Part shown: positions 6,528-56,043 of the stretch, one piece after another
How the letters are laid out: each line of letters opens with the position of its first letter
How positions within the stretch are numbered: the first letter of the stretch is position 1
Assembly (NCBI GenBank): GCA_009784185.1
Contig: WRCD01000005.1
Span: forward strand, 1,868 to 65,867
DNA from: Bacillota bacterium
GTDB lineage: Bacteria; Bacillota; Clostridia; Christensenellales; UBA1242
DNA length: 64,000 nucleotides
Reading direction: 5' to 3'
Program-made: the position numbers and the translations under genes
Notes under the pieces: model-generated
The model's database searches: none
What the model was told of the DNA's origin: nothing
What the model saw: the letters and a program-made list of their open reading frames with translations, nothing else

Positions 6528-6590
6528 AATTCCCCTTCTCCAAAGGGGGTTAACGCCGTCAGGCGGACGGGGTAGCCGCCGCAGACGCAG
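6528..6590 (+). repeat. Family-A repeat (long form with GACGGGGTAGCCGCCGC module)
   Basis: AATTCCCCTTCTCCAAAGGGGGTTAACGCCGTCAGGCGGACGGGGTAGCCGCCGCAGACGCAG. It runs into the glmS ribosome-binding region. Confidence 0.85.
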
Positions 6591-6598
6591 GAGGCAAT

Positions 6599-8392
6599 AT
6601 GTGCGGAATTGTAGGATATGTGGGCAGCAAACTTGCCCTGCCCGTGCTTATGCGGGGACTTGCCAGCCTTGAATACCGCGGTTATGACTCGGCAGGAGTG
6701 GTTTTCAGCGAGCAGTCGACCCTTACCGTGTTTAAGCGCACCGGCAGAATCAACAGTTTAAACAACTATTTAAAAAACAAGCTTATAGCCTCCGGCTGCG
6801 GCATTGGGCATACACGCTGGGCAACTCACGGAGGACCAAGCAACACAAACAGCCACCCGCATACCGACGAGTTTGGTTCGGTGGCCGTTGTACATAACGG
6901 AATTATTGAAAATTATGCCGAGCTGAAAGCGTGCCTGATTGCTGAAGGTGTGGTTTTTAAGTCGGAAACCGACACTGAAGTAATTGCACATTTATTATCT
7001 AAATTTTATAAAGGCAATCCGCTTGATGCATTAATTAAAACCTGCAAGCTGCTGCACGGTTCATATGCGCTTGCAGCGTTGTTTAAAGCTGACAATGAGC
7101 AGATAGTTGCTGCCAGAAACGGCAGCCCGCTGGTAATTGGCATAGGTCAAAACGAAAACTTTATAGCCAGTGACGCCTTAGCGCTGCTGCCGTATACAAA
7201 CAGCTTTATAGAACTTAACAACAATCAATTCTCGGTCATAACTCAAAACTCTGTTAAAGTTTATGACCCAAGCGGTAAAAAGATTGCCGCAAATCCTAAA
7301 ACCGTTCAGCTGGATATTCAGCAAGCCGTCATGGGCAATTATCCGCATTATATGCTAAAAGAAATTAACGAGGTGCCCCGGTCCGTTACCGATACTCTGG
7401 CACAGCTAGAAAACAACAGCAGCCTGAATCATATTCCCGATTCGGTTTTTGCTCAGGCCAAGGACTTTCATATTGTAGCGTGCGGCACGGCGCTCAATGC
7501 CGGTCTTGTTTTGAAAGACTTACTGGCACGCAAACTCCGGTTAAACGTAACAAGCGATTTTGCCAGCGAATTCAGATATAAAAGCCCAAAACTGAGCAGA
7601 AAAAGCCTGTGCATATTCATTAGCCAAAGCGGCGAAACCGCAGATACCTTAGCCTGCGTACAACTTGCTAAAGAACATGGCGCAATAACCATTGCCGTAA
7701 CCAATGTGGTGGGCAGTACAATCTGCAGCATGGCCGATTATATTATTCCAACGCGTGCAGGCCCCGAAATTGCGGTTGCCAGCACAAAGGCATATTCGGC
7801 TCAGCTTACGGCAGGCTATTATATTGCATTGCATATGGCAAAACTCTTAAGAAAAAAGGCTCTTTCATACACCATAGCCGACTTGTATGCCGCGGCAAAC
7901 GTGCTGGAAGCCTTTCTTCCGGAACTAAATTTAAGCGAAACCGTAAGCCTTGTAAAGTCCCGTCAAAGCATATATTACATCGGACGCGGACTGGACTATT
8001 GCGTTGCGCTTGAAGGCTCGCTTAAACTGAAAGAAATTTCGTATATTCATTGCGAAGCCTTTCCCTGCGGCGAGCTTAAACACGGTTCGCTTGCGCTGAT
8101 TGAACCAAATACATTTGTGCTTTGCATCATAACTCAGGCAGACCTTATAGAAAAAAGCGTTAATGCCATACATGAAATAAAAGCGCGTGGCGGCAAGGTC
8201 ATACTGTTAACCCAGTTCCCCAGCCTGGACCAATACGCCGACATTACTGTTACGCTGCCGCAAGCCGCAGATGAACTTATGCCGCTTATCTCGGTGCTGC
8301 CGCTTCAGCTGCTGGCATACAAAACCGCCGCAGCCAAAGGCTTTGACCCCGATAAACCCAGAAACCTGGCCAAATCGGTAACGGTAGAATGA
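6599..8392 (+). CDS. glmS: Glutamine--fructose-6-phosphate aminotransferase
   Basis: MCGIVGYVG N-terminal Cys nucleophile, two SIS-type halves, and the C-terminal KPRNLAKSVTVE. Confidence 0.95.
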   Translation: MCGIVGYVGSKLALPVLMRGLASLEYRGYDSAGVVFSEQSTLTVFKRTGRINSLNNYLKNKLIASGCGIGHTRWATHGGPSNTNSHPHTDEFGSVAVVHNGIIENYAELKACLIAEGVVFKSETDTEVIAHLLSKFYKGNPLDALIKTCKLLHGSYALAALFKADNEQIVAARNGSPLVIGIGQNENFIASDALALLPYTNSFIELNNNQFSVITQNSVKVYDPSGKKIAANPKTVQLDIQQAVMGNYPHYMLKEINEVPRSVTDTLAQLENNSSLNHIPDSVFAQAKDFHIVACGTALNAGLVLKDLLARKLRLNVTSDFASEFRYKSPKLSRKSLCIFISQSGETADTLACVQLAKEHGAITIAVTNVVGSTICSMADYIIPTRAGPEIAVASTKAYSAQLTAGYYIALHMAKLLRKKALSYTIADLYAAANVLEAFLPELNLSETVSLVKSRQSIYYIGRGLDYCVALEGSLKLKEISYIHCEAFPCGELKHGSLALIEPNTFVLCIITQADLIEKSVNAIHEIKARGGKVILLTQFPSLDQYADITVTLPQAADELMPLISVLPLQLLAYKTAAAKGFDPDKPRNLAKSVTVE

Positions 8393-13631: not shown

Positions 13632-14888
13632 ATGGCTTTTTTTATTTTAGGTGCATATACCACTCCTATGATACCCGCAAGCACAATCACAGTTAGTGCA
13701 GATGCCCTAACACACAACGCAGTTACAATAAAAAGCCGGCTGCCCGCAAAAACCAAGCTTTGCGCCGTTGTAAAAGCAAATGCCTACGGGCATGGAGTAA
13801 AATTTGCCGTAACCACGCTGGAGCCGTACGCAGACTTTTTTGCCGCTGCCACCAACCATGAAGCACTGGAGGTGCGTAAACTAACCCAAAGGCCTACGCT
13901 GGTAATGGATTCGCTGAAAACATCTGCACTTGCTAAATGTTTAAAACAAAACATTCATATCTCTGTTTGCTCGCTAAACGAACTGAAAATACTGTTATCG
14001 GCTGCCAAAAAGGCAGGCACAACGGCTCAGGTTCATATCAAGCTAAACACCGGCATGAACAGGTTTGGGATTTCCGGCACAGATGAATTTAGCTGCTGCA
14101 TAAAACTCATTAAAAACCAGCCAACCCTTACACTGGCCGGTGTATATACTCATTTCGGTGCCGGTGATAACCCAAGCCACCCTCGCACGCACGGCCAAGC
14201 CAAGCGGTTTAAACAGTTTCTGGCAATACTCCCGCCGGAACTAAAACCAATAATACACGCTGCCAACACCGACACTGCGCTAAACTTCCCCCAATACGCA
14301 TTTGATATGGTTAGAGTTGGTATAGGATTATATGGGTATGGGTCAAGCACGAACCAAAATTCCCCTCCCTGGAGGGGTGGCGCAGAGCGCCGGGGTGGTT
14401 TTACCCCCGTACTTACTCTCACCTCCTACATCGCAGCCATCCAAACTGTAGCTAAAGGCCAATATATCGGCTACGGCACCGGCACAAGAGCAAAACGCAA
14501 TATGACTGTTGGCATAATCCCGCTTGGATACGCAGACGGCATTTCAAGGAGCTTATCCAACAAAGGCAAAGTAATTATATCCGGCTTACCCGCCCCTATA
14601 ATCGGCAATATCTGCATGGACAGTTTTACCGTTGACCTAACCGAAAATTCCCCAACTCCTGCGGGGTGGATGTCAAGCGTAGCGCAGACAGACGGGGTAG
14701 CCGCCGCCGAAGGCGGCGTAAAAACTTTGGCGGTCGGAACCCCCGTCACCATAATCGGCCCGGACCAAACCGCAGCCGACATAGCCGAAACACAAGGCAC
14801 TATAGCCTATGAAGTACTGACCGGTATTAATCATTGCAGAATAAATTATCAAACAAAAAATCCAAACAAAAAATCCCCTCTAAGTTAG
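13632..14888 (+). CDS. alr: Alanine racemase carrying two in-frame family-A repeat insertions
   Basis: PLP-lysine motif AVVKANAYGHG, then GIGLYGYG, PLGYADG, ICMDSFTVDLT and GTIAYEVLTGI. The ATG at 13632 lies inside the upstream terminator, so the true start may be the ATG at 13668. Confidence 0.85.
   Translation: MAFFILGAYTTPMIPASTITVSADALTHNAVTIKSRLPAKTKLCAVVKANAYGHGVKFAVTTLEPYADFFAAATNHEALEVRKLTQRPTLVMDSLKTSALAKCLKQNIHISVCSLNELKILLSAAKKAGTTAQVHIKLNTGMNRFGISGTDEFSCCIKLIKNQPTLTLAGVYTHFGAGDNPSHPRTHGQAKRFKQFLAILPPELKPIIHAANTDTALNFPQYAFDMVRVGIGLYGYGSSTNQNSPPWRGGAERRGGFTPVLTLTSYIAAIQTVAKGQYIGYGTGTRAKRNMTVGIIPLGYADGISRSLSNKGKVIISGLPAPIIGNICMDSFTVDLTENSPTPAGWMSSVAQTDGVAAAEGGVKTLAVGTPVTIIGPDQTAADIAETQGTIAYEVLTGINHCRINYQTKNPNKKSPLS
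14358..14400 (+). repeat. Family-A repeat inside alr, in frame
   Basis: AATTCCCCTCCCTGGAGGGGTGGCGCAGAGCGCCGGGGTGG, translated as NSPPWRGGAERRGG. Confidence 0.85.
14646..14725 (+). repeat. Family-A repeat (long form) inside alr, in frame
   Basis: AATTCCCCAACTCCTGCGGGGTGG..GACGGGGTAGCCGCCGCCGAAGGCGGCGTAAAAAC, translated as NSPTPAGWMSSVAQTDGVAAAEGGVKT. Confidence 0.85.
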
Positions 14889-14913
14889 AGGGGTGCCCAA
14901 CGGGCGGAGTGTG
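14871..14913 (+). repeat. Family-A repeat across the alr stop
   Basis: AAATCCCCTCTAAGTTAGAGGGGTGCCCAACGGGCGGAGTGTG. Confidence 0.8.
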
Positions 14914-14920
14914 TGTTTAA

Positions 14921-16973: not shown

Positions 16974-17098
16974 AATTCCCCTTCTCCGAAGGGGTGGACG
17001 CGAAGCGGACGGGGTAGCCGCCGCCAAAGGCGGCGCAAAAACTCGGATTACCACAACCCCCGGCGCTCTGCGCCACCCCCTTAGCTTAAGGGGGAATT
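16974..17098. repeat. Family-A repeat, inverted pair (long form + short form)
   Basis: AATTCCCCTTCTCCGAAGGGGTGGACGCGAAGCGGACGGGGTAGCCGCCGCCAAAGGCGGCGCAAAAAC ... CGCCACCCCCTTAGCTTAAGGGGGAATT. Confidence 0.85.
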
Positions 17099-18722: not shown

Positions 18723-18786
18723 ATCGAATTATAGCATATATTTGCCAAAAATAGAAAGTGAATAATAGATGATAACTTCGTTTACC

Positions 18787-18871
18787 GTCACTGCGAGACT
18801 GTCCTCGGAGCCAGCAGACGAAGGAGCGTTAGCGACCCACCGTTGTTCCCTGTTACTTGTTCATTGTTCAC
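18787..18871 (+). repeat. Composite repeat: family-C-like end + GGAGCGnnAGCGACC module + heptamer array D1
   Basis: GTCACTGCGAG.., then GGAGCGTTAGCGACC, then GTTGTTC CCTGTTA CTTGTTC ATTGTTC AC. Confidence 0.75.
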
Positions 18872-24282: not shown

Positions 24283-24447
24283 TATATTCCCATTTAAAGA
24301 GGGATGTCACCTGGTGACGGGATACAGTGTGCTAATAGTTTCCTCTATTTCACAAGCAATATTACCACAAAACCACGCAAAAGTCAAACTTATACGGAAA
24401 AAACCCGCAAACAAATATCAGATATCAAATGTCAGATATCAGTTGAA

Positions 24448-24575
24448 GGTCGCTGACGCTCCAAAAAGATGTGGCAGCGAAGTGACGGGGGATGTGATTT
24501 GCGAAGGCACCTAACAGACCACGTCAGCTTTGCTAGCCACATCTTTAGTTATTAAGTATTAAGTGCTTTTGGTTT
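24448..24575 (+). repeat. Family-B long hairpin (copy B1) with flanking modules; left arm of ~125-bp inverted repeat
   Basis: GGTCGCTGACGCTCC, then stem AAAGATGTGGCAGCGAAGTGACG, loop GGGGATGTGATTTGCGAAGGCACCTAACAGACC, stem CGTCAGCTTTGCTAGCCACATCTTT, then (ATTAAGT)n. Confidence 0.85.
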
Positions 24576-25205
24576 TACAATTACCTTAATCAGCGCAAAC
24601 AGCAGTGCCGCAAAAACCCCTACAAAAAATGCGCCCAGCATATATGTAACAAAGTCCTGAAACACCGTACATACCGCTACCATAAATATGCCCGTTATCA
24701 GGTTGCCCGCAAGCAGTGCTAATAAAGACTTCCAGAATCCTAAGCCCAGTATCAGCGCAACCAGGCAGCCGGCGTATATCCCGCTAAACGGCAGCGGCAG
24801 CGCAACAAACAGCACCACACCTATTATCTTATAAAAATCTATCATTGCCGGATTATGCTTTTTGCCGGCACGTTCTGCTGCCTTGCCCTCAATCTTGGTT
24901 TTGCTCTTACGCAACTTCTTGTCAAACTCATCAACTGCTTTTCTAAACAGCCTGGTATTGCGCAGCCGGTTCATAATCGGCAATCCTATTAATAGTATCA
25001 CCGGCATAATTACGCATGAACCAAGATACCCCCAAAAAAACGCCGCAAACGGGCTCATGGCATTAGCTCCCCAAATTTCGGCCGACATCCCAAACGGGAT
25101 AGCGGTATGAAACTCCAGCATAGGAAGCGCAGATACAATCATAACCGCAAGCCAGTTAGCCTGCCCGAATACCGAAACCAGAAACTCCGTAACCCACTCA
25201 AACAT
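24552..25205 (-). CDS. Small multidrug export protein family (Sm_multidrug_ex-like) membrane protein
   Basis: LPMLEFHTAIPFGM .. a K-rich loop .. ALPLPFSGIYAGCLVALILG fits the COG2426-type two-half topology. The track start at 25226 is a GTG inside the flanking repeat, so I prefer the ATG at 25205. Confidence 0.65.
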   Translation of the reverse strand: MFEWVTEFLVSVFGQANWLAVMIVSALPMLEFHTAIPFGMSAEIWGANAMSPFAAFFWGYLGSCVIMPVILLIGLPIMNRLRNTRLFRKAVDEFDKKLRKSKTKIEGKAAERAGKKHNPAMIDFYKIIGVVLFVALPLPFSGIYAGCLVALILGLGFWKSLLALLAGNLITGIFMVAVCTVFQDFVTYMLGAFFVGVFAALLFALIKVIVKPKALNT

Positions 25206-25227
25206 GCTGTATTCTATGCGGAGCACT

Positions 25228-25375
25228 TAATACTTAATACTTAATAACTAAAGATGCGGCTAGCAAAGCTGACGCGGTCTGTTAGGTGCCTTCGCAAATC
25301 ACATTCCCCGTCACTTCGCTGCCACATCTTTTTGGAGCGCCAGCGACCTATACTTGTTCCCTGTTCCCTGTTCAC
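25228..25375 (-). repeat. Family-B long hairpin (copy B2, inverted) + GGAGCGCCAGCGACC + heptamer array D2
   Basis: The reverse complement matches 24448-24575 with a few substitutions and one extra ATTAAGT unit. It ends in CTTGTTC CCTGTTC CCTGTTC AC. Confidence 0.85.
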
Positions 25376-25812: not shown

Positions 25813-25825
25813 AATTTTTCTCCTT

Positions 25826-25869
25826 AATATTCCCCTCTGCAAGAGGGGCGCCCGAAGGGCGGGGTGTGG
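25826..25869 (+). repeat. Family-A repeat
   Basis: AATATTCCCCTCTGCAAGAGGGGCGCCCGAAGGGCGGGGTGTGG. Confidence 0.85.
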
Positions 25870-25921
25870 TTAATGGGTTTATTGTAACAGATTTCTAGCC
25901 TGTTGGCAAGCAAAAGAATGT

Positions 25922-25962
25922 AATTCCCCTAGCCACGGAGGGGTGCCCGAAGGGCGGGGTGG
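25922..25962 (+). repeat. Family-A repeat
   Basis: AATTCCCCTAGCCACGGAGGGGTGCCCGAAGGGCGGGGTGG. Confidence 0.85.
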
Positions 25963-25973
25963 TTTAAAACAAA

Positions 25974-33857: not shown

Positions 33858-33981
33858 AATTCCCCTTTATGAAGGGGTGGATGCGCCATAGGCGCAGACG
33901 GGGTAGCCGTCACCAAAGGTGGCGCAAAAGCTTTTTCACATACCCCGCCCTTCGGGCACCCCTTTATCTTAAAGGGGAATT
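33858..33981. repeat. Family-A repeat, inverted pair (long + short form)
   Basis: AATTCCCCTTTATGAAGGGGTGGATGCGCCATAGGCGCAGACGGGGTAGCCGTCACCAAAGGTGGCGCAAAAGC ... TACCCCGCCCTTCGGGCACCCCTTTATCTTAAAGGGGAATT. Confidence 0.85.
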
Positions 33982-35266: not shown

Positions 35267-35340
35267 GCGGGCGTAGCTTAATGGTAAAGTTCCAGCCTTC
35301 CAAGCTGGCTATGTGAGTTCGATTCTCATCGCCCGCTCCA
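35267..35340 (+). tRNA. tRNA-Gly (TCC)
   Basis: Acceptor GCGGGCG/CGCCCGC, anticodon loop CTTCCAA, CCA encoded. Confidence 0.9.
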
Positions 35341-35346
35341 AAATTT

Positions 35347-35421
35347 AGGGGTGTAGCCAAGCGGTAAGGCTCCAGACTCTGACTCTGGCATGCGGAGGTT
35401 CAAATCCTTCCACCCCTGCCA
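35347..35421 (+). tRNA. tRNA-Gln (CTG)
   Basis: AGGGGTGTAGCCAAGCGGTAAGGC.., anticodon loop CTCTGAC, CCA. Confidence 0.9.
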
Positions 35422-35430
35422 ACAATTTAT

Positions 35431-35507
35431 GGTGGATATAGCTTAGCAGGTAGAGCGCCAGGTTGTGGCCCTGGAGGTCGTGGGTTCGAATCCCACTATT
35501 CACCCCA
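35431..35507 (+). tRNA. tRNA-His (GTG) with encoded G-1
   Basis: Extra 5' G, anticodon loop TTGTGGC, T-arm GTGGGTTCGAATCCCAC, CCA. Confidence 0.9.
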
Positions 35508-35523
35508 CTATTCGCCCCGATGT

Positions 35524-35600
35524 GCGCCCGTAGCTCAGCAGGATAGAGCAACGCCCTTCTAAGGCGTAGGTCGGGGGTTCGACTCCCTCCGGGCGTGCCA
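35524..35600 (+). tRNA. tRNA-Arg (TCT)
   Basis: GCGCCCGTAGCTCAGCAGGATAGAGC.., anticodon loop CTTCTAA, CCA. Confidence 0.9.
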
Positions 35601-35603
35601 TAT

Positions 35604-35679
35604 GACCCATTAGCTCAGTCGGTAGAGCACTTGACTTTTAATCAAGTTGTCCCGCGTTCGAATCGCGGATGGGTCACCA
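35604..35679 (+). tRNA. tRNA-Lys (TTT)
   Basis: GACCCATTAGCTCAGTCGGTAGAGC.., anticodon loop CTTTTAA, CCA. Confidence 0.9.
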
Positions 35680-35689
35680 AGAAACTCTA

Positions 35690-35772
35690 GCGGATGTGGC
35701 GAAATTGGCAGACGCGCCAGACTTAGGATCTGGTGGGCAACCGTGGGGGTTCAAGTCCCTCCATCCGCACCA
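35690..35772 (+). tRNA. tRNA-Leu (TAG)
   Basis: Type-II tRNA GCGGATGTGGCGAAATTGGCAGACGC.., anticodon loop CTTAGGA, long variable arm, CCA. Confidence 0.9.
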
Positions 35773-35889
35773 ACATAGTCCTAAGGTTGGAGGACTTGAA
35801 CGGGCAAGGGCGCTGCCGGCGGCAGATGAAGCCCGCAGCCCAGGCGTGAAAGTGCCGAAGGCACGGAGCAAGTCCCTCCATCCGCACCA
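35773..35889 (+). other. Structured ~96-nt insert followed by an exact 21-nt duplicate of the tRNA-Leu 3' end
   Basis: CAAGTCCCTCCATCCGCACCA occurs at 35752-35772 and again at 35869-35889. An inverted partial copy GGAGGACTTGAAC at 35789-35801 can pair with the second copy. Internal hairpins are CTGCC-ggc-GGCAG and GTGCC-gaa-GGCAC. Confidence 0.7.
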
Positions 35890-36050
35890 ATGCAGTTATA
35901 AGGTGTATGACCGCAGGCGGTCATACAACCCGTCGGCGCTCGCAAACGAGCACTGCGTGCCCGCAATTTTTGAAAATCTGTTTTTGTCCGCAAGCGCCCA
36001 AAAGCAAATTTTCACAATTTGCGCGCTTCGCGTTGGATTTGCTCGCTTCT

Positions 36051-36125
36051 AGGGGTGTAGCCAAGCGGTAAGGCACAAGACTTTGACTCTTGCACGCGTT
36101 GGTTCAAATCCAGCCACCCCTGCCA
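36051..36125 (+). tRNA. tRNA-Gln (TTG)
   Basis: AGGGGTGTAGCCAAGCGGTAAGGC.., anticodon loop CTTTGAC, CCA. Confidence 0.9.
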
Positions 36126-36708: not shown

Positions 36709-37941
36709 ATGTACATGAACAACACTAAAATTGCATCAGCCAGACCCAGATACACTAAAAGCACACTTGCACTGGGTGCAAGCGTTTTAGATTATTGCGG
36801 AGTAAAAACAAAACTGCCTAAGCTTGGCAGGGTTAGGTCTGCTCTGAAGAAAAACTACAAAAACGTTGTGTTTTTAATTTTGGACGGCCTCAATACATTA
36901 AGTCTGCAGGAGCTTCTGCCGGCCGATTCTCTTCTCAGAAAAAACCTGAAAGGCAGCCTGACATCGGTTTTCCCGTCTACAACCGCGTGCGGTTTAACCA
37001 CTTTGTTTACGGCAGGCTACCCTGCTGCGAATGGCTGGCTGGGGCAAAAGATGTACATAGAGCAACTAGATAAGGTTATTGACATATACAAAAACACCTG
37101 CGCATACACCGGAGTCAGCCTTAAAGACGATGACTATTACGAGAGCTATCTGCCGCCTGCTACCATATTTTCTCAAATTGAAGCCATGCAGAAACCACAA
37201 ATAAAAATACATACCCTTACCCCGCAAAAAACCCGTAACATTGCCGAAAACAACTATTACTACTCCGACATGGCCGAAATGTATACGGTGCTTAACAAAA
37301 TGACCCGGCAAAACGGCAGAAAAGCAATTATTGCGTATGCACCGCATTTGTCTAAAGCAATGAGCACCCATGGCACAGCTTCGGGCCAAGCCGAAGCAGT
37401 TCTGCAAGAACATGAACTGTATTTAGCCGAACTGATGGAAAAAGCCGGTGATACATTGTTTATTGTGTCGTCCGGCCACGGAATGATTAATATCCAAAAC
37501 AACATCCATTTAGAAGACTATCCGGAAATCTGTGCTACATTCAACAGACCTCCGTCCGTTTGCAGCCGCGCAATCAGCTTTGGAATAAACAAGTTAAGCC
37601 GCAAACAATTTGCGCGTCTGTTTAACCACCACTTCAGCACGGATTTTAAACTGTACACTGCAAAACAAATAGTTGCCGGCGGCTTGCTTGGTAAAGATGC
37701 TTGTCCGTGTCTGGATTTACTTATAGGCGATTTTATTGCAGTTGCAAAAGCCAACTCTGCAATGCATTACAAAACACCCAAAGGGGTTGAGCCGAAAATT
37801 ACAATAGCCTCCAGCGGCGGACTCTCCAAACAGGAAATGCTTTTACCGTTAATAATTTTTGGAAAGAAAAAGAAATCCAGTAAAAAGAAAGCGCCTCAAA
37901 ATTCCCCTTCCCTGCGAAGGGGTGGCAAGCCGAAGGCTTGA
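36709..37941 (+). CDS. Alkaline-phosphatase-superfamily phosphodiesterase / nucleotide pyrophosphatase-like protein
   Basis: VVFLILDGLNTLSL and SVFPSTTACGLTTLFTAGYPAANGW give the metal-binding Asp and nucleophile Thr region. The last ~15 aa (NSPSLRRGGKPKA) are read from a family-A repeat. Confidence 0.7.
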   Translation: MYMNNTKIASARPRYTKSTLALGASVLDYCGVKTKLPKLGRVRSALKKNYKNVVFLILDGLNTLSLQELLPADSLLRKNLKGSLTSVFPSTTACGLTTLFTAGYPAANGWLGQKMYIEQLDKVIDIYKNTCAYTGVSLKDDDYYESYLPPATIFSQIEAMQKPQIKIHTLTPQKTRNIAENNYYYSDMAEMYTVLNKMTRQNGRKAIIAYAPHLSKAMSTHGTASGQAEAVLQEHELYLAELMEKAGDTLFIVSSGHGMINIQNNIHLEDYPEICATFNRPPSVCSRAISFGINKLSRKQFARLFNHHFSTDFKLYTAKQIVAGGLLGKDACPCLDLLIGDFIAVAKANSAMHYKTPKGVEPKITIASSGGLSKQEMLLPLIIFGKKKKSSKKKAPQNSPSLRRGGKPKA

Positions 37942-37970
37942 CGGGGTAGCCGCCGCCAAACGCGGCGCAA
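37900..37970 (+). repeat. Family-A repeat (long form) overlapping the 3' end of the phosphodiesterase ORF
   Basis: AATTCCCCTTCCCTGCGAAGGGGTGGCAAGCCGAAGGCTTGACGGGGTAGCCGCCGCCAAACGCGGCGC. Confidence 0.85.
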
Positions 37971-38012
37971 AAAAAGCAGCCATAGCTGCTTTTTTTATTT
38001 TGCTCAAAATTA

Positions 38013-39690: not shown

Positions 39691-40146
39691 ATGGATAAAG
39701 AAATAGAATCACTTCCGCCGGAAGAAGTTATAGTCAAGCTAAAAAAGCTGATTAAAATAATTGAGCATGCTCAGGCTGACCTTGGCAGCGAAATTACACA
39801 TGCCCAGGCACGCATTATCTTCCCCATCTGGCGCGACGGCAAAGGCTACACAATTGTTGAACTGGCTAAAGCAGGCAGTGTTACCAAAGGCCTGGTATCG
39901 CGCACCATTGCCGACCTTGAAGCCAAAGGCTATGTTGAGCGCCAAAAGGAGTCCGCCAATCAGGACAGAAACTATAAGATAGTTCTTACTCCCAAAGCTC
40001 ATGCGCTTGCCCGGAAGCACAAAGCAAAAATGCAAAAAGTTTCCGGCAAATGGAACGGCAAGTTGACAAAAGACGATTTTGAAACATTTATAAGAGTATT
40101 AAACATCATAACCGACATAGAATATGGAAAGGAGCAACCATGTTAG
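39691..40146 (+). CDS. MarR-family transcriptional regulator
   Basis: Winged-helix region YTIVELAKAGSVTKGLVSRTIADLEAKGYVERQKESANQDRNYKIVLT. I rejected the track start at 39625 because it lies upstream of the promoter. Confidence 0.75.
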   Translation: MDKEIESLPPEEVIVKLKKLIKIIEHAQADLGSEITHAQARIIFPIWRDGKGYTIVELAKAGSVTKGLVSRTIADLEAKGYVERQKESANQDRNYKIVLTPKAHALARKHKAKMQKVSGKWNGKLTKDDFETFIRVLNIITDIEYGKEQPC

Positions 40147-42584
40147 TATTAGAAAACATTGTAAAAGAATATGCGGCAGGCACCAGCAAGATAGAAGCGC
40201 TGGCGGGCGTCAGTCTCTCGTTCAGGAAAAACGAGTTTGTTTCAATTCTTGGCCCCAGCGGCTGCGGAAAGACCACCATGCTGAATATTGTTGGCGGCCT
40301 TGACCGCTACACCAGCGGCGACCTGATTATAAACGGCAAAAGCACAAAAGACTTTAAGGCATACGAGTGGGACGCATACAGGAACCGCTCCATCGGTTTT
40401 GTTTTCCAGAGCTATAATCTGATTCCGCACTTATCTGTGCTCGGCAATGTTGAAATGGCGCTTACCCTGTCCGGAATATCAAAGCACGAGCGTAAAGAGC
40501 GTGCAACCGCTGCCCTGGCTGATGTTGGCTTAACAGACCAACTGCACAAACGCCCCAACCAGCTGTCGGGCGGACAGATGCAGCGTGTGGCAATTGCACG
40601 TGCACTTGTAAACAATCCTGACATTATCTTAGCGGATGAGCCGACCGGCGCACTGGACAGCACCACCAGCGTACAGATAATGGAGCTGTTAAAAGTTGTA
40701 GCCGAAAAGCGGCTTGTAATAATGGTAACTCACAACGGTGACCTTGCCGAACAATACAGCACACGCATCATTAAGCTGCTTGACGGCAAACTGCAATCAG
40801 ACAGCAATCCGATTGTGGAAGAACCTGTCATTGCGAGCAATTCTATTCCGGATTCAAACGAAGCAATCCCAAAGATTGGTGCTTCTAACCGCGAGATTGC
40901 TTCGTCTGTTGGCGCTGCAGGCCCGTCTCGCAATGACAAGGCAAAACCCAAGCGCAACAAAACCAGTATGTCATACATAACTGCCCTTTCATTAAGCCTA
41001 AAAAACCTGCTTACCAAAAAGGGGCGTACCTTTATTACCGCCTTTGCGGGCAGCATTGGCATAATTGGCGTAGCATTGGTATTGGCGGTTAGCTTTGGGT
41101 TTAACGCCTACATAGCAAGCGCACAAACCGACACTCTGGCCGAGATGCCTATTCAGGTAAACCGTTCGGTAATGGACTTTAGAAGCTATATGAACCATGA
41201 AGAAACCACCCAGAATCCGAGCGACGCTATTTACCCGTATACTCCTCCGCCAAACAACACCCATCACAACGTTATAACCCAAGGCTATGTTGACCACGTA
41301 AACGACCTTGATTCGGCATTATATACAGATATTCGTATGCGATACGGCCTGGAAATGAACTTCGTTGCAGAAGCGGGCACAAACTATAACTCCTTCAGAA
41401 TGCGCGAACTATCAAGCAGAAACACCGAAAACGAGCGCATTTACGAAGTGCTTGCAGGCAACTGGCCTGCGGCAGCAAATGAGCTTGTGCTGGTATTGGA
41501 CAGCAACAATCTGATAATGTCCGACACCCTTAACCAATTAGGAATAGCCAACACCTCCGGAACCCCGTTTGCTTTCAGCGAAGTTCTTGGTAAAAACACT
41601 TACAGACTTATACCCAACGATGCATTCTATCAGACCTCGGGCGGCGGGTTTGCTCCCAAAACCGTTGATGGGGCATTATATGCGCATACTTCGGCTGTAC
41701 CGCTTACAATTGTCGGTGTGGTAAAAATAAAGAACGCCGACGCGGGCGGAATGCTGGACATGATGGATATGGTTTCCGGCTCGTTTAATTCATCAACCGG
41801 GCTTGCTTTCTCCCCTATGCTTACACAGGCCAGGCTGGCGGCAGAAGCAACTTCCAATATGGCAATTGCGGCTACTACAACTCACCTTAACAATTTTCTT
41901 TTAGAAAGAAGAATTTCGTTTGGCGAAAGCACCGTAACCTTTCCGGCGGGCTCTGTGATTATCCCTGCTCTTTCATATATGAAATTAGACCAACAGAGGC
42001 AATTCGGAGCCAACACCACTCCCGCAAGCATACGCATTTTTCCGAAAGACTTTGACAGCAAAACAATAATTAAAGAGCATCTAGCTGCGTGGAACGCGAG
42101 CAAAGCCGAAGCCGACCAGATACTCTTCTCCGATTTAGCCGAAACCATTACCAACATGATGGCTACGGTAGTAGACGCAATTTCATATGTATTAATTGCG
42201 TTTGCCGCAATAAGTTTGGTAGTATCCAGCATAATGATTGGCATAATTACTTATGTATCGGTAATTGAGCGGACCCGCGAAATTGGAGTGCTGCGAGCCC
42301 TTGGCGGAAGAAAGAAAGATATAAGGCGCGTGTTTAACGCCGAAACCCTGATAATCGGATTTACGGCGGGCGTAATTGGAGTTGCGGTTACACTTATACT
42401 TACGCTGCCGATTAACCTGATTATAAACTTCTATGTACCGGAGCTGCATAATGTGGCGCAAATGGCATGGTGGCATCCGATTGCCTTAATCGGCGGAAGC
42501 ATGGTGCTCACATTTATTGCGGGGCTGTTCCCGGCAAACGCAGCAGCAAAAAAAGACCCGGTTGTAGCATTACGAACCGAATAA
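40140..42584 (+). CDS. Fused ABC transporter ATPase + FtsX/MacB-type permease, with an in-frame family-C repeat in the linker
   Basis: [24 protein letters not shown] and [11 protein letters not shown], then the FtsX-like TM region [26 protein letters not shown] and the C-terminal [18 protein letters not shown]. The ATG overlaps the marR stop. Confidence 0.85.
40826..40937 (+). repeat. Family-C element (12-nt terminal inverted repeats TGTCATTGCGAG) inside the ABC transporter gene
   Basis: TGTCATTGCGAG...TCAAACGAAGCAATCCCAAAGATTGGTGCTTCT...GATTGCTTCG...CTCGCAATGACA. Translated as [37 protein letters not shown]. Confidence 0.85.
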
Positions 42585-49539: not shown

Positions 49540-49555
49540 AAGTTACCTCCATATA

Positions 49556-49673
49556 AATTCCCCTCTACAAGAGGGGTGCCACGGAGTGGCGGGGTGTGGT
49601 TGGTTGAAAAGTCTTTGCGCAGCCACACCCCGTCAAACCTGACGGTTTGCCACCCCTCTTATAGAGGGGAATT
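49556..49673. repeat. Family-A repeat, inverted pair
   Basis: AATTCCCCTCTACAAGAGGGGTGCCACGGAGTGGCGGGGTGTGG ... CCACACCCCGTCAAACCTGACGGTTTGCCACCCCTCTTATAGAGGGGAATT. Confidence 0.85.
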
Positions 49674-51178: not shown

Positions 51179-51222
51179 ATACCCCGCCGCTTCGTGGCAC
51201 CCCTTTATCTTAAAGGGGAATT
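51179..51222 (-). repeat. Family-A repeat (reverse), overlapping the 3' end of the feoB-like ORF
   Basis: ATACCCCGCCGCTTCGTGGCACCCCTTTATCTTAAAGGGGAATT. Confidence 0.85.
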
Positions 51223-52593
51223 TTTGCACTTTCCACAGTTCGTACATTTATGCCGAGTTATCAGCATAAACACCGCAACCGTCACCAACAGAATTATAAA
51301 CGCCGCAAACAGCAGCCCGGCAAAATCCCCGTTAAAAGCCGCACACGCAATTTTATATGACAGGAACGAAAACAAATACGCCGCAGCAAACTGTATGCCC
51401 ATCGCCACCCATGCAAGCTGCTTCCCAACCTGACGCCGGAGACTTACAATAGCCGCAATGCAAGGGATACTAAGCAATACAAAAACCAAAAACGACACTA
51501 CAGCTTCAGGCGTAAAACTTACGCTCAACACGCCCAGACAAGACACAATGGCCTCCTTAGCAACCAAGCCGCAAAGCATTGCGGATACCGCTCCCCAGTT
51601 TCCCCACCCGAGCGGAACAAAAACAGGTGCCAGAATCATGCCTATTTGCTGCAGCATACTTATTTCCAAATCCGGGTCGGAGATGTAAACAAACCCGAAA
51701 GTAAAGTTTTGCAACACCCAAACAAGAACCGTAAGACTTAACACAACTGTTCCGACCCTTTCCGTAAAGTGACGGGCAGCATCGGCAGCCGATTTTGCCA
51801 CAGCTTTTATACTGGGCAACTTGTATGGCGGCACGCTGTCATTGCGAGTCCGCCCAACAGAGACGGGCAAGCGAAGCAATCCTTCGGACAGAAGCACCAA
51901 TCTTTGGGATTGCTTCGTTTGAAGGAGTATCAGGTCCGTCTCGCAATGACAGTTCGCCACACTTCTTAAGAGAAGCTTGTCCATTATCCACGCCAACAAC
52001 ATGGCAACCGCAACTCCCAGCAGATACAATCCAAAAACCAGCACCCAATTGCCCGCCCCAAAAAACGCACCGCCCAGCACCACATAAACCGGCAGTTTTG
52101 CACTGCAGGACATATATGGTGTAAGTATTGCGGTTTTGATTCTTACACTTTTATTTTCAATATTCTTTACTGTAGGAATTGCCGTTGTAGTACAGCCAAA
52201 CCCCATAAGTAAGGTAAACGCACTTTGCCCGCTTAATCCAACTTTAGAAAAAAACTTATCAAAAACGCGGGCAACCCGTGCCAGATACCCTGTCTGCTCC
52301 AAAACGCCAAGACAAACAAACAACAGCACAATCTGCGGCAGAAATGCAATAACCATTCCCGCCCCTCCAACCACCGCATCACGAACCAGCGCAATTATCC
52401 AGATTGGAGCGTTTATTGCAATAACCAGGTCAACCAGATACCCGCCAACAATCCTAACCACCACAAATTCAAAGCAGTACGACAAAAACGCCCCAAACGG
52501 CCCGAATGTAATAAAAAATATAATAAGCATTACCAACAAGAATATGGGCAACGCTAAATACTTGTTTAGGAATATCTTGTCGGGATTAATCAC
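51205..52593 (-). CDS. feoB: FeoB-type transporter, membrane (Gate/nucleoside-recognition) portion only, with an in-frame family-C repeat
   Basis: LEQTGYLARVARVFDKFFSKVGLSGQSAFTLLMGFGCTTTAIP .. LTPYMSCSAKLPVYV is the FeoB core. The ORF has no G-domain, and the 78-nt gap to nrdR leaves no room for one upstream. Confidence 0.7.
   Translation of the reverse strand: MINPDKIFLNKYLALPIFLLVMLIIFFITFGPFGAFLSYCFEFVVVRIVGGYLVDLVIAINAPIWIIALVRDAVVGGAGMVIAFLPQIVLLFVCLGVLEQTGYLARVARVFDKFFSKVGLSGQSAFTLLMGFGCTTTAIPTVKNIENKSVRIKTAILTPYMSCSAKLPVYVVLGGAFFGAGNWVLVFGLYLLGVAVAMLLAWIMDKLLLRSVANCHCETDLILLQTKQSQRLVLLSEGLLRLPVSVGRTRNDSVPPYKLPSIKAVAKSAADAARHFTERVGTVVLSLTVLVWVLQNFTFGFVYISDPDLEISMLQQIGMILAPVFVPLGWGNWGAVSAMLCGLVAKEAIVSCLGVLSVSFTPEAVVSFLVFVLLSIPCIAAIVSLRRQVGKQLAWVAMGIQFAAAYLFSFLSYKIACAAFNGDFAGLLFAAFIILLVTVAVFMLITRHKCTNCGKCKNSPLR
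51837..51951 (-). repeat. Family-C element inside the feoB-like gene (core inverted relative to the copy at 40826)
   Basis: TGTCATTGCGAG ... CTCGCAATGACA. The reverse complement shares the identical 33-nt core TCAAACGAAGCAATCCCAAAGATTGGTGCTTCT. Translated as [38 protein letters not shown]. Confidence 0.85.
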
Positions 52594-52622
52594 CCATTAG
52601 TGTATTTGAGGCTCCACAATAA

Positions 52623-52664
52623 AATTCCCCTCTATAAGAGGGGTGCCCGAAGGGCGGGGTGTGG
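52623..52664 (+). repeat. Family-A repeat
   Basis: AATTCCCCTCTATAAGAGGGGTGCCCGAAGGGCGGGGTGTGG. Confidence 0.85.
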
Positions 52665-52671
52665 ATAAAAG

Positions 52672-53225: not shown

Positions 53226-53344
53226 AATTCCCCTTACTTTACTTTCGCCACACCCCGCCACTAAAAGGGGCAGTCCGGAGTGTCGGGGGATGTGATTTGC
53301 GAAGGCACCTAACAGACCCTGACAGCTCCGGACTGCCCCTTTTG
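53226..53344 (+). repeat. Degenerate family-A unit followed by family-B long hairpin (copy B3)
   Basis: AATTCCCCTTACTTT..CACCCCGCC, then stem AAAAGGGGCAGTCCGGAGTGTCG, loop GGGGATGTGATTTGCGAAGGCACCTAACAGACC, stem CTGACAGCTCCGGACTGCCCCTTTT. Confidence 0.85.
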
Positions 53345-55913: not shown

Positions 55914-55916
55914 CCA

Positions 55917-56043
55917 AAGGGGTATGCGGAGTTACGGGGGATGTGTTTTGCGAAGGCACGTAACAGACCCTGTAAGCTCCGCGTACCCCTTTAGGAGCAA
56001 AGCGACCCTTAGTTGTTACTTGTTACCTGTTCCTTGTTCCCTG
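55917..56043 (+). repeat. Family-B long hairpin (copy B4) + GGAGCAAAGCGACC + heptamer array D5
   Basis: Stem AAAGGGGTATGCGGAGTTACG, loop GGGGATGTGTTTTGCGAAGGCACGTAACAGACC, stem CTGTAAGCTCCGCGTACCCCTTT, then GTTGTTA CTTGTTA CCTGTTC CTTGTTC CCTG. Confidence 0.85.

Follow-up and report, generated by a model that had tools for sequence, protein, structure and literature searches.

A probable REP-like palindromic dimer read in frame in the linker of a fused ABC transporter from a Bacillota metagenome contig

A 64,000-nt stretch of a Bacillota metagenome contig (WRCD01000005.1, assembly GCA_009784185.1; hereafter "the window") carries a palindromic element of 113 nt, copy A, within the open reading frame (ORF) of an ATP-binding cassette (ABC) transporter (positions 40826–40938, forward strand). 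We interpret copy A as a non-autonomous, head-to-head dimer of units that resemble repetitive extragenic palindromic (REP) sequences, embedded in a permissive linker of the transporter, read through by the ribosome and tolerated by its host protein, and we assign this interpretation a probability of about 0.8. A second full copy, a decayed third one in murD and a very large superfamily of related elements elsewhere show that copy A belongs to a dispersed repeat instead of being part of the native linker. The interpretation would account for the odd peptide of a transporter that is normal in other respects, and it warns annotators of the peptide's origin in a repeat.

Copy A is bounded by perfect 12-nt inverted repeats, the left terminus TGTCATTGCGAG (40826–40837), which consists of a TGTC tag followed by ATTGCGAG, and the right terminus CTCGCAATGACA (40927–40938), which is the reverse complement of TGTCATTGCGAG; the host DNA upstream reads ...GAAGAACC. 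The original prediction, made from the letters of the window alone, had recognized these termini correctly but placed the end of a ~112-nt segment at 40937, one base short. Exact matches to the terminal 12-mer occur four times in the window, all of them from copy A and a second copy, copy B (51837–51951, reverse strand, 115 nt), which has the same 12-nt termini and, with respect to its host gene, is oriented like copy A. A search with the terminal 11-mer, allowing up to one mismatch, gave 5 matches in the window versus 0.69 expected. The two copies are 76% identical overall, with the differences located in the two arms, and share a core that had been predicted as 33 nt long. This 33-mer has exactly two matches in the window (40854–40886, forward strand, and 51890–51922, reverse strand; 0 expected from shuffles), and pairwise alignment extends the identity between the copies to 34 nt in a row (40853–40886 in copy A). 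The two hosts read the shared core in different frames, at offset 2 in copy A and offset 1 in copy B.

In each arm of copies A and B, a TGTC tag is followed by an ATTGC...GCAAT stem and then by a C-rich tail; the two tags point outward, and a 26-nt spacer separates GCAATC from GATTGC in both copies. The tails that follow GCAAT in the four arms are CCC, CTC, CCC and CCT. The basal stem of each arm (ATTGC/GCAAT) is 5 bp long and surrounds an interior of 21–22 nt, while the 8-nt ATTGCGAG base-pairs with the opposite arm. An inner hairpin is formed by CGAAGCAATC (40859–40868 in copy A), which contains the GCAAT closing the left arm, and GATTGCTTCG (40895–40904); it is found in both copies. This hairpin had been singled out earlier for possible RNA structure, and the predicted folds of both complete copies indeed beat those of shuffled sequences, as RNA (−40.6 kcal/mol for copy A and −48.1 kcal/mol for copy B; z = −3.4 and −5.1) and as single-stranded DNA (z = −4.2 and −5.1, respectively). 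A search with Rfam 15, whose models cover self-cleaving ribozymes and introns, brought only tRNAs to the gathering score and, at E≤10, just chance hairpin matches.

The host gene of copy A (40140–42584, forward strand) encodes a MacB-like protein of 814 aa in which an ABC ATPase is fused to an FtsX-type permease. Its reading frame continues through copy A without a stop codon and all ATPase motifs are intact, bearing out the claim that the host ORF is undamaged to either side of the insert. Pfam assigns residues 22–169 to ABC_tran and residues 687–807 to FtsX, and AlphaFold2 places the end of the ATPase domain near residue 221 and the beginning of a helix at residue 279. Copy A, which codes for residues ~230–266, lengthens the stretch from the ATPase domain to the first membrane helix by ~37 residues, exactly where the original prediction had located it. 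The closest transporter homologues in a search of 5.8 billion proteins are ~50% identical to the window protein. When the protein was aligned with 21 homologues, the ATPase and permease portions aligned throughout, and most of the homologues were without the extra ~37 residues, the distance from the conserved SDSNP to the conserved KKTSMS being ~20–25 residues in most of them versus ~50 in the window protein. The AlphaFold2 model calculated on that alignment assigns residues 227–275 a predicted local distance difference test score (pLDDT) below 50 and no secondary structure. Because linker lengths vary among the homologues and the pLDDT of this region is low, copy A sits in a length-variable, probably disordered cytoplasmic linker. 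Among 1.84 billion representative proteins, HMMER matched the 41-aa insert peptide only to two unrelated repetitive proteins, and six concatenated element translations used as a single protein query (a poor design) gave no match at E≤1.

Copy B resides in a gene for a FeoB-like membrane protein (51205–52593, reverse strand; 441 aa in the public gene call) that has Gate domains only. The protein is without a G domain, the upstream gene is nrdR, and most homologues are full FeoB proteins of 690–710 aa. Copy B occupies the site of the nearly invariant ...KSxxQSFILEFPxYRxPS motif, replacing most of the SFILEFP-type motif, and relative to homologues ~13 nt of host sequence have apparently been lost there (a figure that is indicative only, at 54% identity); a further gap of ~23 residues follows later in the protein. 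Judged from its sequence, the host gene of copy B may be decaying, or it may be a split or diverged paralogue.

A census of the family adds a third, decayed copy to these two. An nhmmer model built from copies A and B detected a half-length relic in murD (E = 4e-6; positions 2341–2391 of locus L139, equivalent to ~70906–70956 and thus ~7 kb past the end of the window). The relic is in frame (...GGLLRLKGSEGRLAKTD...) and lies in the orientation opposite to that of copies A and B. Its host MurD has 13 more residues in the relic region than the closest solved MurD, and the relic-derived peptide GLLRLKGSEGRLAKT aligns gaplessly to native MurD sequence in that closest solved structure. All three clear family copies in ~74 kb lie within ORFs. 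The same model gave a weak match (E = 0.04) to a possible degenerate single arm in intergenic DNA, CGTCACTGCGAG...CGAAGGAGC (18785–18828, forward strand).

Searching species-representative genomes for the pattern TGTCATTGCGAG-N75–105-CTCGCAATGACA, for which ~0.1 chance matches are estimated, revealed a superfamily with at least 119 genome loci, distributed over about 20 phylum-level groups. The matches come from Chloroflexota, several candidate-phyla-radiation lineages, Bacteroidota/Rhodothermales, Ignavibacteria, Cyanobacteria/Melainabacteria, Alpha-, Beta- and Gammaproteobacteria, Desulfobacterota, Planctomycetota, Acidobacteriota, Nitrospirota, Gemmatimonadota, Calditrichota, Elusimicrobiota, Omnitrophota, Atribacterota, KSB1, Zixibacteria and Bacillota (for example Faecousia and Oscillospiraceae). 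Superfamily elements follow a common plan, in which a 12-nt terminus, a variable segment, C-G-N-N-GCAATC and a spacer (median 36 nt) are followed by the mirror image; of 154 elements among the matches listed, 115 carry the GCAATC-type inner motif in each of the two arms. Self-complementary mini-hairpins make up the variable segments (mean −4.5 kcal/mol versus −1.7 kcal/mol for shuffles) and are often closed as C-GNA-G, a loop also present in very stable mini-hairpins of DNA such as GCGAAGC. Covariation of the inner-motif variants between arms was considered and rejected, as CGAAG, CGTGG and CGCGG mix freely and are not compensatory. Most superfamily copies are intergenic and lie closer to the 3′ ends of genes, with no clear orientation bias (tandem, convergent and divergent settings number 48, 15 and 9 versus 379, 104 and 94 in the background), and the fraction of copies inside genes is roughly 6–16% among the matches listed. 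The exact family-core 24-mer is absent from the JGI metagenomes, where a relaxed arm pattern identified two contigs with a 132-nt relative, apparently intergenic; the relaxed arm pattern has no match in viral contigs.

The superfamily pattern is also found in viral contigs and on plasmids. It is present in 17 IMG/VR contigs, nine of which (L121, L122, L124, L128, L131, L133, L134, L135 and L137) are syntenic and carry the element at different positions. Because these nine viral contigs have syntenic genes, one group of related phages carries superfamily copies. Plasmids of Methylosinus, Methylocystis and Novosphingobium carry the pattern as well, and the plasmid copies are all unannotated. On plasmid pOB3b1 of Methylosinus trichosporium OB3b, a CGTC-tagged version of ~80 nt (positions 2453–2536 of locus L143; unannotated in RefSeq) lies between two convergent genes, directly after a stop codon. 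In a Sphingobacterium metagenome-assembled genome (positions 25–855 of locus L092), the 22-nt unit TGTCATTGCGAGCGCAGCGTTT is tandemly repeated at the end of elements, which indicates that single arm starts can be amplified locally.

The original prediction described the insert as MITE-like, after the miniature inverted-repeat transposable elements. A classical MITE, that is, an insertion sequence shortened by deletion and mobilized by the DDE-type transposase of its parent element acting on the 12-nt terminal inverted repeats, would account for perfect repeats that start with TG and end with CA, for the length of ~113 nt and for the multiple copies. However, target-site duplications were sought and not found at copies A and B, nor are they apparent in the superfamily, where 90 of 122 copies among the matches listed are without any matching flank base and the rest fit chance. 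The same 122 copies revealed no extension of the inverted repeats, no conserved flank and no insertion-site consensus; a weak pyrimidine/purine preference adjoins the termini. No autonomous element was encountered, in that no long-range pair of termini encloses a gene in the ~0.9 Mb of loci that were fetched (loci, not whole genomes), and in the genome loci the elements have no recurrent neighboring gene and no recurrent transposase-like family next to them. Transposases, including REP-associated tyrosine transposases (RAYTs), are absent from the Pfam-annotated genes of a ~35-kb region around copies A and B (contig positions 37.7–75.4 kb, as opposed to whole genomes). The interior of the element, moreover, is made of conserved stems and mini-hairpins and not of insertion-sequence remnants. 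We regard a classical MITE as improbable, and "MITE-like" is only loosely right for an element whose anatomy is that of a head-to-head REP dimer. Because target-site duplications and a linked transposase are lacking and the architecture is one of mini-hairpins, we favor spread by a hairpin or single-strand DNA route in trans over DDE cut-and-paste.

The closest published relatives of such a dimer belong to the CGTC-tagged REP superfamily described by Di Nocera, De Gregorio and Rocco in 2013 (PMC3733652), which includes Rickettsia RPE-4 and RPE-6 and Neisseria dRS3 and was reported from 5 phyla, chiefly Alphaproteobacteria. According to that survey, these repeats carry a terminal CGTC tag, which is TGTC in many repeats and also occurs as the variant CCTC; the stem of 8–9 bp starts with A-T, T-A, the loop measures 4–5 nt, and an unpaired 3-base tail has the consensus CCA. 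They are mostly arranged as head-to-head dimers with spacers of 20–100 bp and are without a linked transposase (PMC3733652). Copies A and B are alike in having a TGTC tag at the outer end of both arms, an arm stem that starts with A-T, T-A (ATTGC...GCAAT), a dimer with outward tags and a 26-nt spacer, and no transposase seen beside the elements, either in the genome loci or in the ~35 kb around A and B. Their tails are short and C-rich but do not read CCA. We infer from the encoded peptides that the tags-outward arrangement equates with the published "head-to-head" orientation.

The peptides encoded by the published repeats add to this comparison. Many CGTC-type copies are intragenic, including RPE-4 and RPE-6 of Rickettsia and copies in uvrA/B/C (uvrB in Rickettsia), in dnaE and in Coxiella feoB, and the repeat-encoded peptides include VIPAKAGI, CHSRESGNP, SFPRKRES, DSRFRGND and the VIAGLDPAIH of R. 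palustris CGTC-3 (PMC3733652 and its supplement). The coding sequences of these peptides (VI.., CH.., SF.. and ..RND) begin with GTCATT... and finish with ...AATGAC, as in the element here, and the Rickettsia dimer peptides (SF...RND) show the same polarity. For the R. palustris CGTC-3 peptide, the inferred back-translation GTCATTGC...GCAATCCA has the same stem start and end as the present element. The suggestion that peptides with ..RND.. and ..IAS.. signatures are translated intergenic repeats fits these published lists. The exact element strings are absent from the text and supplements of PMC3733652, and the subfamily studied here differs in its distribution over about 20 phylum-level groups, with Bacillota, Chloroflexota and candidate-phyla-radiation lineages among them. 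By this partial resemblance, the element would be a relative or variant of the CGTC REP superfamily, not a proven member of its four families. Literature searches by DNA, RNA and peptide strings recovered only primers and chance matches, and AntiFam gave nothing specific.

In-frame palindromic repeats within genes are already documented in Rickettsia and other bacteria. Rickettsia palindromic elements of the RPE-1 type, reportedly described by Ogata and colleagues in 2000 and 2002, are said to lie in frame in many genes. Likened by description only, they resemble copy A as palindromes of ~100–150 bp that are in frame, translated and thought to lie in surface loops, and differ from it in being confined to Rickettsia. 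REPINs are inverted REP doublets that form one long hairpin, carry GTAG tags and are moved by RAYTs, which are flanked by the same REPs. The element here is likewise a non-autonomous inverted doublet without target-site duplication, but it carries TGTC as its tag, and the roughly 74 kb examined revealed no RAYT. QMITE1 of Coxiella, a bacterial MITE that is 300–400 bp long and has direct repeats of 2–3 nt (PMC5896051), is similar in being a short, non-autonomous repeat that overlaps annotated ORFs and encodes peptide, and differs from the present element, which is without direct repeats.

Several observations weigh against the interpretation of copy A as a REP-like dimer inserted into a linker. 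The 5-bp stem and the interior of 21–22 nt differ from the 8–9 bp and 4–5 nt of the published CGTC REPs, and the single arms of the two copies have no folding advantage over shuffles (z = +0.9, +1.6, +0.3 and −0.1); where a GC-rich apical hairpin is present, canonical sister arms do fold alone (z = −2.9). A few transporter homologues carry comparably long linkers of unrelated sequence, and the linker of the Acinetobacter MacB, whose structure has been solved, also measures ~45 residues. Since there is no close orthologue (best ~50% identity), the exact empty site is not demonstrable; the expectation that the insert would be missing from orthologous transporters held for most homologues and failed to the extent that some have equally long, unrelated linkers. 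Finally, neither 113 nor 115 is a multiple of three, and simple insertion cannot alone explain the kept frame. The original events must have involved a small indel or imprecise ends, and precise loss of either copy, from DNA or RNA alike, would shift the frame, so the copies are now locked in by the frame of their hosts.

The same arithmetic bears on the idea that the element is excised, either from the RNA like an intron or from the protein like an intein, before the protein does its work. Strong structure and a location inside conserved genes are compatible with such removal; precise excision, however, would shift the frame (113 = 3×37+2 and 115 = 3×38+1) and destroy the downstream domain. 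In addition, no Rfam match was obtained even at permissive thresholds, group I and group II introns are far larger than 113 nt, and the peptide is without intein motifs. We give removal almost no chance.

The insert could also be functional and selected, with the peptide serving as a linker or the mRNA hairpin pacing translation or affecting transcript stability. The position of copy A exactly at a domain boundary, an RNA fold of about −40 kcal/mol, and the location of 3/3 family copies in ~74 kb within genes, versus roughly 6–16% of the superfamily, speak for a function. On the other hand, the frame of the shared core differs between A and B, the peptide has no homologue among the 1.84 billion representative proteins, and insertions elsewhere strike unrelated proteins. 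Among the matches listed, 8 of 125 copies lie in ORFs that reach at least 100 codons to either side. Compared with the Bacillus caldotenax structure, a gammaproteobacterial UvrB is longer by 60 residues, SVIAREPASSAGDRGNPVPLSTNDEIASSASTPPRNDI among them, between PDB positions 404 and 406, and a Staskawiczbacteria MnmA has 40 residues between aligned stretches versus 8 in the PDB chain, with ~32 extra residues at the element. Within the UvrB insertion (positions 781–890 of locus L027 and downstream), the element accounts for 38 of the 60 residues, and the remaining residues, KVSPLSLLPKNPQGRVTYSDDS, may stem from a second repeat. Superfamily elements have 2.0 open frames of 6, only a mild excess over the 1.4–1.8 of shuffles, and no length preference modulo 3. 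A selected function is unlikely on this evidence, and the mild open-frame excess and absence of a modulo-3 length bias make the in-frame copies look like survivors of selection against disruptive insertions, not like elements built for coding.

Of the two possibilities offered by the original prediction, a tolerated or a selected insertion, the first would thus apply to copy A, and with less force to copy B, while the second is not supported, as the core frames differ. The differing core frames, the reversed orientation of the murD relic and the lack of peptide homologues also argue that the conserved features (the termini, the inner stem and the core) are features of the nucleic acid and not of the peptide.

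The window is part of a 112.9-kb metagenome contig (k141_1590144, assembly ERZ27257304), which NCBI also lists in a metagenome-assembled genome with FWE53 locus tags. This origin raises the question of an assembly artefact in which two loci were joined via the shared repeat and the fused ORF is chimeric. The metagenomic origin of the assembly, with its MEGAHIT-style contig name, favors such an artefact, as does a k=31-type Logan contig that ends at the shared core. This 5.1-kb contig, from an independent assembly of run SRR10512951, contains the same upstream genes, flank, left terminus and left arm as the window, and therefore the same junction of flank, terminus and arm, and stops just before the 34-nt core common to A and B, the point at which a short-k assembly graph would branch. 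A chimeric join of two loci is unlikely because the 34 nt of identity are far fewer than the final k-mer of 141 suggested by the contig name and because the protein is collinear with fused homologues on either side of the insert; the arms also differ between the copies, and the surrounding gene order is coherent. An artefact, which had been named as a possible refutation of the insertion, is accordingly very unlikely, the left junction being reproduced independently.

For the preferred interpretation of copy A as an embedded REP-like dimer, we propose the following course of events. Two inverted REP-like arms with outward tags and a 26-nt spacer would form a dimer related to CGTC/TGTC-tagged REPs, one copy of which would have become embedded in DNA coding for the flexible linker that joins the nucleotide-binding domain to the first transmembrane helix. 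With no stop in the frame used and a net length change that preserved it, the ribosome would read through the element, yielding a protein with ~37 extra, probably disordered residues. The transporter is presumably made and working. The insert would be tolerated owing to the permissive linker and not to any usefulness of the peptide, and the element would represent selfish or neutral DNA at a site where a modular protein accommodates extra sequence. When palindromic repeats enter coding DNA in this manner, they supply proteins with new linker and loop sequence.

A broader and more doubtful proposition is that the TGTCATTGCGAG...GCAATC dimer constitutes one nucleotide-conserved lineage across about 20 phylum-level groups, which in this genome perhaps survives only inside genes. 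If true, a single lineage that includes tiny candidate-phyla-radiation genomes would imply widely conserved trans-acting machinery for CGTC-type REPs, and the lineage would persist here only in genes, where precise loss shifts the frame, while younger repeat families fill the intergenic space. The widely spread, exactly conserved termini provide a data set for phylogenetic profiling of the enzyme that moves CGTC-type repeats, a question left open by the 2013 survey (PMC3733652).

The intergenic DNA of the window is crowded with other repeat families. A GTAG-tagged family, GACGGGGTAGCCGCCGCCGAAGGCGGCG, occurs at 6566–6601, 14691–14726, 17008–17043, 33897–33932 and 37940–37975; its GTAG tag is followed by a GC-rich hairpin with a GAAG loop, and it resembles the GTAG-type REPs that are associated elsewhere with RAYT transposases. 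Short hairpins make up at least two further intergenic families, AATTCCCCTCTATAAGAGGGGTG and GCCCGAAGGGCGGGGTG, which are present at 14870–14918, 25825–25873, 25920–25968, 49553–49601, 52620–52668 and related sites. Inverted repeats of 118 nt (24447–24564 and 25232–25349, 97% complementary) surround a gene for a 224-aa membrane protein (24552–25226), and partial copies of this repeat lie at 53265–53330 and 55916–55981. The interval 24447–25349 was considered as a transposase cassette and rejected, since it has no transposase inside, belongs to a different repeat family and contains a small membrane-protein gene.

Seven tRNA genes are clustered within ~860 bp (35267–36122), and three isolated tRNA genes are located at 2854, 12156 and 20783. 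Among the neighboring genes are spoIVA, a gene for a spoIIGA-type peptidase, genes for sporulation-type sigma factors, and ftsA/ftsZ; by their predicted products, these genes point to a spore-forming Bacillota lineage.

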